Shown here: piece by piece, positions 21,207 through 22,761 of the stretch
Layout of the letters: each line of letters begins with the position of its first letter
How positions within the stretch are numbered: the stretch's first letter is position 1
DNA from: Eledone cirrhosa
Taxonomy: Eukaryota
DNA: 64,000 nucleotides
Assembly (NCBI GenBank): GCA_964016885.1
Contig: OZ024742.1
Location: 241,614,001-241,678,000, forward strand
Direction of reading: 5' to 3'
Notes under the pieces: model-generated
What the model saw: only the letters and a program-made list of their open reading frames with translations
Told to the model about the DNA's origin: nothing
Databases searched by the model: none
Made by a program: the position numbers and the translations under genes

Positions 21207-21659
21207 AACCAAATAAATATATATTTAAAAAAAAAAATGATGCCAGTTGCATTTTCGATTTCATCTTTTTTCCTTATATTTTCCGTGTGTGTGTGTGTGT
21301 GTGTGTGTGTGTGTGTGTGTATATATATTGGCATGTCTGATGCAAAAATTCCAACATACCAGTATGTATAAATGCATGTGTACGTGGGTGTGTTTGTTGT
21401 GAGTGTATATTATCGATTGTATATGTTAGTGTATGTATGAGTGGGCGTGATTAAGCTGTGATGTAAGCACGGACGTTTGTTTATTCATTACATGCTTATA
21501 TATATATATATATATATATATATATATATATATATATATATATATATATATATATATATATATATATATATATATATATATATATATATGTGTGTGTGTG
21601 TTTTTCGAATATTAATAATAATATTTGACTCGTTTGCAATTATGCAAACAGCCTCTTAA

Positions 21660-21866
21660 CCCTTTAGCATTCACATTACTCTATATTTACTATTGTATTT
21701 TCACCGTAAACACTTTATTTCACAGAATATTAAATGTGCGAGATTTTGATATTATTTATTTTGAGAACAATACGTTAAAGTAAGTATGGGGGCCAGTTAT
21801 GACCAATTTGAATAGAAAGAGGTGAGAGAATTCTGGCCGCATACGGCCGGTTTAAATGTTAAAGGG
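21660..21866. mobile_element. piggyBac-type MITE
   Basis: TTAA TSD (21656-21659, 21867-21870), TIRs ccctttagcatt / aatgttaaaggg; the paralogous arm near 22532 has a single TTAA. Confidence 0.88.
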
Positions 21867-22023
21867 TTAAGCTATGTGAGTAGAACAACCTCGCCATTCT
21901 TGCTCTTGTGTTGGCATTCTGCCGTTCTGTTTATATGCCAACACAATAGCAAGAATGACGAGGTTGTTCTACTCACATGGCTTCAGAGGATCTGTGCATA
22001 ATTGCAAACGAATCGAATATTAT

Positions 22024-22193
22024 GGGTGGAGAGTCGGACGCCATGCTTTCCAGTATAGTTACGTCCCTTTACGGTCTGAGTTCAAGTCCCGCCGAGGTTA
22101 ACGTTGCCTTTCATCCTTGCGGAGTCGATAAAATAAAGTACCAGTAATATACTGTGTAATTGCTGGTCTTGTGCCAAAAGTAGAAACAATTAT
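22024..22193 (+). mobile_element. tRNA-derived SINE nested in the family E element
   Basis: Family consensus; inserted in a tattatt tract that is uninterrupted at 22568-22580. Confidence 0.9.
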
Positions 22194-22428
22194 TAATATT
22201 CCTATAATAACCTATTTGTTAGTTATTTAACTATGGCAAAGCCGGCCATTAATCGTTCGTATACATAAAACTGACTGGCCTACTTGCTGTTATGCAAATC
22301 TGGCTGATCAGTCAGGTCTGACTGGTCAGGCAGTGTGATAATATGCAAATCAGGCCGATCAGTCACTGTATATTGTAGACAATATCATATATTTTCACTA
22401 GCTCTCACAGTTGGCAGATAAATATCAT

Positions 22429-22475
22429 ACGGTACTGATGAAGGGTAATCACCTAGAAACATTAGTGTCTGCCGT
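22429..22475 (+). ncRNA. Type I hammerhead ribozyme, family E, intact core
   Basis: acggta-CTGATGA-agg gtaatca cct a-GAAA-ca ttag tg-TC-tgccgt. Confidence 0.9.
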
Positions 22476-22761
22476 TCTGTTTATATTCCAACATAAGAGC
22501 AAGAATTGCGAGGTTGTTCTACTCACATGGCTTAAAAGGCTGTGTGTATAATTGCAAGCGGATCGAATATTATTATTAATATTCGAAAAACTCAGATTTA
22601 CATTTCTTGTATTCAGCCAGGTAGAGCGATAAAACTATTTGTTATATATACATACATACATATAAATACATGCAAACACACACACAAACACACACACAAA
22701 CACACACACACAAACACACCACACACATTCACACACACACACACGCACACATATATATATG

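Follow-up and report, generated by a model that had tools for sequence, protein, structure and literature searches.

A decayed two-armed insertion of a hammerhead repeat in Eledone cirrhosa and a probable trace of ribozyme cleavage in the 5′ ends of its family

Introduction

The closest described counterparts of the repeat analyzed here are the animal non-LTR retrozymes. In the available text of PMC7229834 and 10.64898/2026.07.22.740005, these are tandem non-coding units of low GC and strong self-pairing that carry one type I hammerhead with a short helix III able to dimerise, occur in thousands of copies, and co-exist with Penelope-type elements (PLEs); the family described below resembles them in each of these respects. 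Its 436-nt unit lies slightly above the range of ~170–400 nt given in the consulted part of PMC7229834 and inside the 51–972 bp given in that of 10.64898/2026.07.22.740005. Unlike the long arrays of those elements, the copies of this family are mostly incomplete and two-armed, and they carry A.A at positions 10.1/11.1. The most stable fold predicted for the unit also buries the hammerhead core, a situation that the available portion of PMC7229834 describes as unusual among animal retrozymes. Linear and circular RNA and cleavage are features of known members, whereas the present family is described here from genomic sequence. Circles have been proposed as retrozyme templates, with no insertion evidence given in the accessible text of PMC7229834, and insertion ends are not mapped in the available text of either study.

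The EN+ PLEs provide a second comparison. In the accessible text of PMC8557442, PMC11167929, and PMC4209133, they show 5′ truncation, partial tandems, an inverted 5′ copy, a tail of 30–45 nt at one end only, and (TA)n targets, with RT start sites that lie a short distance downstream of the hammerhead, all of which is found in our family as well. In contrast to these elements, the family has no ORF and possesses a full extended helix I instead of a minimal hammerhead. The PLE layout of an inverted 5′ copy and a one-ended tail (PMC8557442, available part) is accounted for by two RT start sites that are used on both strands (PMC11167929, available part). The role of the hammerhead in PLE transposition is called unclear in the accessible portion of PMC8557442. 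For the Anolis PLE, uncut RNA is the dominant substrate in vitro and cleavage is unnecessary; the text available for that study (PMC11167929) reports no RNA reads beginning or ending at the cut, whereas the genomic 5′ ends of the present family peak there.

A third system is R2 with its 5′ HDV-like ribozyme. Here, too, the cut site is mirrored in genomic 5′ junctions, which vary by microhomology when the cut lies at the element's end (PMC3774820, available part). According to the same text, R2 belongs to another ribozyme class and is autonomous and site-specific, and its cut defines full-length ends, whereas in our family the cut marks a minority. Our full-text search, which covered the main texts of journals open without subscription, found no study mapping the genomic 5′ junctions of hammerhead elements, the one item returned being a study on plants, and the main text of an octopus repeat annotation (PMC13282606) does not mention ribozymes.

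Judged by the features that can be tested in sequence, the family is a putative new animal non-LTR retrozyme with PLE-type insertion anatomy, in which one canonical hammerhead pair is absent. The locus itself is ordinary; the family-level signal is moderately interesting and testable.

Results

Architecture of the locus

The features of the insertion are listed in Table 1. The window is the whole 64-kb stretch of DNA analyzed, and all positions refer to it unless marked as unit positions. In the unit numbering, +1 is the first base after the hammerhead GUC (22470), 0 is its C, and −1 is its U.

Table 1. Features of the two-armed insertion in window positions
Feature	Position	Strand	Basis
(TA)n/(TG)n microsatellite, left target site	21497..21599	.	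sequence
Inverted arm, outer part, unit +124 to +67, "short" 3′ end	21600..21659	-	parse of locus L001
MITE-like insertion, later, TTAA-flanked, 215 nt, CCC...GGG ends	21656..21870	.	related copies in L017
Inverted arm, inner part, unit +66 to +16	21867..21917	-	alignment to unit
Forward arm, upstream partial unit, from 2 nt before the predicted cut to +106	21918..22023	+	direct repeat
SINE-like insertion, later, at unit +105/+106, 165 nt	22024..22188	+	many other copies in the 64-kb window
Remainder of unit, +105 to +436, contains long internal hairpin	22189..22469	+	alignment to unit
Type I hammerhead motif	22410..22492	+	extended helix I, CUGAUGA, helix II with A.A base, GAAA, 3-bp helix III
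Predicted self-cleavage site after GUC	22469..22470	+	hammerhead topology
Last partial unit, +1 to ~+181, including PLE-type "tail" beyond ~+139	22470..22650	+	family 3′ end zones

The sequence-only reading of this DNA had described sense sequence following an inverted arm, and both elements were confirmed: a direct repeat of 106 nt and 89% identity (21918–22023/22468–22573) is spaced at 550 nt, and the inverted arm ends at 21917, abutting the forward arm without gap or overlap. Its account of the inverted arm was incomplete in that the arm is interrupted by the TTAA-flanked MITE-like insert, which we take to be of piggyBac type. The core reads CUGAUGA (22435–22441), GAAA (22456–22459), UC, and GUC, the last at 22467–22469 as first reported.

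The sense strand had been said to begin with the sequence that follows GUC. It does begin near the predicted cut, but the arm starts at 21918 with TC, 2 nt upstream of it. The repeat match reaches exactly these 2 bases beyond the cut (TC/TGCCG, the slash marking the cut) and then breaks, and the TC cannot come from the sequence of the inverted arm. The spacing of 550 nt including a SINE had led to a monomer estimate of ~380 nt; the spacing stands, but the family unit is 436 nt, and the estimate fell short because this copy lacks ~43 nt after the SINE and ~16 nt further on. What had been taken as "~120 nt plus a tail" is actually monomer sequence running on to +175..+181 (~22650), where it meets the microsatellite in one of the two fixed 3′ end zones of the family. 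The locus is a decayed two-armed insertion, in which the MITE, the SINE, and the deletions came later.

The repeat family

We parsed 191 non-redundant loci. The 116 discovery loci comprised 29 from a first search of the 3.0-Gb genome, which gave 3126 candidates, and 87 from 91 of 100 listed matches to an exact motif with 465 matches; the 75 replication loci came from 100 listed matches, all on one chromosome, to a second exact motif with 979 matches. Left out of the counts were the finding's own locus, the duplicates L038, L049, and L058, 11 replication loci repeating or adjoining others, the central arms of L002–L030 (chosen for crossing the cut), and arms whose 3′ end fell outside +100..+200. 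From the exact-motif counts and a median arm divergence of 4.5% (n = 163), the family therefore has some thousands of arms, and because none of the 163 arms lies less than 1.3% from the majority sequence, it is old.

The unit is tandem, non-coding, low in GC, and strongly self-paired (circular fold z = −14.6), and the longest ATG ORF in its circular form spans 32 amino acids in the sense and 35 in the antisense direction. The tandem organization, the lack of coding capacity, and a conserved type I hammerhead support the earlier proposal of a retrozyme-like non-coding unit. Two full hammerheads were present in 5 and one in 126 of 271 arms, and no long head-to-tail array was found in the 191 loci. 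A search for scars of A-to-I editing gave A>G at 1.48% versus T>C at 1.25% (P = 0.05), which we did not count as support.

Two features of individual copies were observed in passing. Insertions of the same SINE-like element recur at unit +101..+123, a likely hotspot within an AT-rich hairpin (window position 22023, L006, L053, L062, L076, L086, L087, L093, and L109). Some copies lie within a few kb of each other, in part with identical junctions (L048/L049, L142/L143, L144/L145, C3:178924840/178926280, and C3:345711238-345728906), pointing to later local duplications.

The hammerhead motif

The core elements CUGANGA, GAAA, and UH are present with helices I–III, and helix pairing is kept in 94.4% of cells (28 copies). 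Helix I measures ~20 bp, its 3′ strand occupying +2..+23, and helix III 3 bp. One helix I pair switches from U-A (52) to G-C (26) among 98 copies, a change that probably arose once, between subfamilies. The G10.1-C11.1 pair at the base of helix II, which is highly conserved in hammerheads according to the available text of PMC4209133, is replaced by A.A in 78 of 85 intact cores; a literature search for A10.1/A11.1 hammerheads returned nothing relevant. The hammerhead had been called intact, which holds for its core motifs and not for this canonical pair. Rfam reported nothing at the gathering score in the 64-kb window and placed no hammerhead model on the motif at E ≤ 10, only hairpin-type chance matches.

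The helix III strand is predicted to self-pair over 10 bp (−8.8 kcal/mol), as in the dimeric hammerheads of the accessible part of PMC4209133, and the best predicted monomer fold, in which the CUGAUG of the core is base-paired to the strand of helix III, lies 6.2–6.5 kcal/mol below the active fold. Hammerhead cleavage is plausible, although its activity would probably be low.

Several copies and neighboring sequences deserve mention. In L241, L266, L282, and some of the genomic matches with a possible end at position 0, the core has been cleanly removed; for two or more of these copies, the deletion is bounded by short direct repeats located in the helix I strands. L262, whose hammerhead is otherwise uninterrupted, carries a single additional A precisely at the predicted cut, and a similar copy occurs in the other subfamily (G000:C22:15374702); this base may be the scar of a ligation or an indel that arose by chance. 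Within the window, a near-perfect hairpin between (TA)n tracts at 23433–23570 carries a CTGATGA...GAAAC core at 23502, with a similar core at 11701 (−), and is possibly the fold-back stub of another hammerhead family. Further hammerhead-like cores lie on the minus strand at 48121, at 9570, and at 23231–23312, the last with a weak Rfam Hammerhead_1 match (14.7 bits, E = 9). A strong negative GC skew, down to −0.78, marks 50001–56000, probably a tandem repeat tract.

Two-armed insertions

Head-to-head pairs make up 93 of the 191 loci. Their ends comprise 61 short+tail, 2 short+short, and 2 tail+tail combinations, with an unclassified end in 28, so that short+tail accounts for 61 of 65 classifiable pairs (P = 4e-14). 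The 3′ ends of the family fall into two zones, at ~+130..+145 and ~+160..+189, and (TA)4 occurs within 24 nt of 165 of 255 such ends, against 7.7% of background windows. This PLE signature of two arms with one short and one tail end, missed by the earlier reading, points to the mobilising machinery: the family was likely mobilised by Penelope-type enzymes.

Paired arms are concordant at 336 of 401 polymorphic sites (84%), compared with 54% in shuffled pairs, and 13% versus 2.8% of rare variants are common to both arms, while arm lengths within pairs are uncorrelated (rho 0.02). Arms meet one another head-to-head or abut the flank, in many cases through 1–5 nt of microhomology; 22 of 93 joints are blunt and 1 of 93 has a 2-nt insertion.

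Family 5′ ends around the predicted cut

Ribozyme cleavage had been proposed to make the 5′ ends of the templates, which as a rule for the family does not hold: 117 of 178 arm passages reaching +30 run past the cut. The distribution of the remaining ends is nevertheless not simply random. In the pooled data, 61 ends fell in 4468 nt at risk at +1..+30 versus 18 in 3204 nt at −29..0 (P = 0.0003), that is, 1.37 versus 0.56 ends per 100 nt, a 2.4-fold difference that makes +1..+30 the highest of 15 windows; the family mean is 0.6 per 100 nt. The replication set alone gave 26 versus 5 ends (P = 0.003). The excess of ~37 ends corresponds to roughly 20% of arms, and the fitted step in end density lies, loosely, at −4 (support −17..+3).

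Two narrower windows were fixed before the replication loci were drawn. At −2..+5, the discovery set had 4 ends against 3.9 expected and the replication set 7 against 2.3 (P = 0.009); at +6..+30, the corresponding numbers were 32 against 15 and 20 against 9.6 (P = 0.002). With microhomology taken into account, 5 of 122 ends lie exactly at +1 (expected, 0.77); the replication set accounts for 4 of these and the discovery set for 1.

We examined single-base junctions genome-wide in the commonest subfamily and counted 35 at +1, 11 at −1 (the start of the present copy), 8 at 0, and 15 at +2. For +1, 50 sequences were taken from 52 matches and contained the 35 junctions, of which 18 were inverted and 17 led into flank, as well as 12 mutated hammerheads and 3 internal rearrangements, the other 2 matches being one duplicate and one hammerhead-like sequence. 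For −1, 16 sequences taken from 77 matches gave 10 junctions, to which L036 was added, with 3 duplicates and 57 sequences hammerhead-like by eye. For +2, the 51 matches gave 14 junctions plus L187, the others being hammerhead-like by eye. The 73 matches at position 0 were inspected by eye only and yielded, besides the 8 junctions, 7 perfect palindromes, for which +1 is a possible end of either arm. The peak at +1 differs from −1 (P = 0.0005) and from 0 (P = 0.002), and from +2 only at P = 0.07 when chance extension is allowed for, or 0.015 with the 7 palindromic joints. Flank-only junctions favored +1 as well, with 17 versus 5 (P = 0.017), or 15 versus 3 without short inverted stubs. The present copy's own subfamily gave 4, 6, and 2 matches genome-wide, with 1 junction at +1 and 1 at the position of this locus, too few for power.

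The two arms of a pair show a tendency to end jointly in the zone (7/8/15 versus 4/13.9/12 expected, P = 0.022, n = 30), and no such coupling appeared in sham zones; in the replication set alone the coupling was not significant (P = 0.33). We considered helix-mediated joints as the source of the excess and rejected them, since joints between +1..+30 and −62..−34 occur in just 2 of 93 pairs.

Random start positions in other copies would have counted against the original reading, and they are not what the family shows: most arms read through the cut, yet the excess 3′ of it replicates and a peak stands at +1. We regard a family-level footprint of cleavage as the probable explanation, from which we infer that ~20% of the templates were cut RNA. 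Starts at +1 are about three times as frequent as those 2 bases earlier, which suggests that a minority of copies likely came from cut RNA.

Discussion

We favor, at a probability of about 0.65, the reading that a PLE RT-endonuclease wrote the hammerhead repeat into (TA)n from RNA that was mostly uncut or circular and to about one-fifth ribozyme-cut, the present copy likely belonging to the uncut class. Tandem units would be transcribed, and the hammerhead is predicted to cut inefficiently, probably as a dimer, because the best fold of the monomer sequesters the core. A PLE protein, our candidate enzyme, would nick both strands of AT-rich DNA, and one cDNA would be primed per strand, near +139 and near +165..+188, in line with the observed pattern of ends. 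The alleles common to paired arms are consistent with both cDNAs being copied from one RNA species; each cDNA would stop early or reach the RNA 5′ end. The cDNAs would then be joined head-to-head or to the flank, often by the 1–5-nt microhomology seen at the joints, with a presumed trimming of at most ~30 nt.

We lean slightly towards the further view that cleavage by the hammerhead in vivo has left a countable fossil record in the genome, in which about one-fifth of cDNAs would have ended on RNA cut by an A.A hammerhead. The remainder would have run through RNA that was uncut or had been re-ligated into circles, and Penelope twin-strand priming would have drawn on either kind of template. An excess that replicates, together with a 5′ junction peak confined to one base at the cut, would establish cut linear RNA as a genuine, though minor, template in vivo, and the footprint supplies a number that can be tested, ~20% cut templates.

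The most serious alternative, which we nonetheless consider unlikely, is that the same PLE-mobilised repeat bears no mark of its ribozyme: RT would stall at the 20-bp helix I, and the peak at +1 would be due to TGC(A) microhomology. The excess zone indeed coincides with the helix I 3′ strand (+2..+23), at which stalling predicts a similar step. However, the 3′ strands of other helices, including a hairpin strand with 41 paired bases, show no excess (0.57 versus 0.52 ends per 100 nt, P = 0.27), and stops are no more frequent at the longer internal hairpin (0.51 per 100 nt). As for microhomology, the bases at +1..+4 form a palindromic TGCA in the commonest subfamily, a sequence that is repeated within the unit; microhomology of 2–4 nt beginning there is found at many of the 18 inverted +1 joints, 4 of the 18 share one TGCA partner at +82, and 7 loci are, by eye, perfect palindromes centered on TGCA. 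Against this, the flank-only junctions given above still favor +1, and the excess is also seen in the subfamily linked to a non-palindromic TGCC (9 versus 1 ends, P = 0.058). Independent stalls also predict no coupling between arms, and yet coupling was observed. Of the 18 partners of arms that end exactly at +1, 5 run across the cut, and among those reaching +30 the split is 7:5, no different from baseline (P = 0.74), which speaks for stalling or for multimer templates. Two further points agree with a silent ribozyme, namely that the A.A core variant may be slow and that hammerhead mutants left insertion by the Anolis PLE unchanged in vitro (PMC11167929, available part).

The strong form of the original proposal holds that ribozyme cleavage of a multimer to unit-length RNA made the 5′ ends of this copy and of the family. 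As a family rule it is refuted by the arms that pass the cut, despite the family peak at +1, and for this locus alone we consider it improbable. The copy starts within 2 nt of the cut, its partner arm stops nearby (+16), and two inserted bases could read TC by chance. The two extra bases, however, match the uncut sequence without a gap, 2-nt insertions are as rare as noted for the joints, and the same arm runs through a second, uncut hammerhead. Reading the start as a cut end needs one of the ~4% exact +1 stops combined with a 2-nt insertion (~1–5% of joints) reading TC (1 in 16), whereas the uncut reading needs only a blunt stop at −1, with a background of 0.5% multiplied by the blunt fraction of 22/93. 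A stop on uncut or re-ligated RNA is therefore the more likely origin of this copy, by a rough estimate of ~10–15 to 1, in keeping with the class to which the favored reading assigns it. At the family mean rate, ~3% of arms getting there would start within 2 nt of the cut by chance; with thousands of copies, one locus is therefore weak evidence, and little can be concluded from any single copy that begins close to the cut, the present one included.

That the repeat is only a pseudo-LTR remnant of an autonomous PLE, surviving as 5′-truncated copies and not as an independent retrozyme, is least probable of all: its tail, inversion, and (TA)n targeting are PLE traits (PMC8557442, available part) and animal retrozymes have been proposed to derive from pLTRs (10.64898/2026.07.22.740005, available part), but all 53 arms of at least 430 nt lead upstream into another unit and not into an ORF, no common non-SINE flank exists upstream of the arms in 116 loci, comparison of the unit with four long-ORF PLE loci revealed no similarity (best E = 0.33), and the one match beside a GIY-YIG locus is independent.

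RT + GIY-YIG ORFs of 636–1096 amino acids (stop to stop) are present in the genome. None was found linked to the terminal repeat, the unit having no ORF and its arms no common upstream flank, and no PLE similar to the unit occurs among 24 loci (20 GIY-YIG and the 4 long-ORF loci; 24 of 150 scored matches). The single match among these 24 was rejected as a partner, being a separate, independent tail-to-tail insertion nearby. The four long, open PLE-type ORFs with RVT_1 and GIY-YIG matches (L227:3809-6622 (−), L228:3488-6019 (+), L229:2275-5562 (+), and L230:3722-5629 (−)) have tandem or inverted flanks and are candidate autonomous partners. L229 and L230 carry a hammerhead-like motif of their own, and L228 has a tandem repeat of ~460 nt with a CTGAAGA core.
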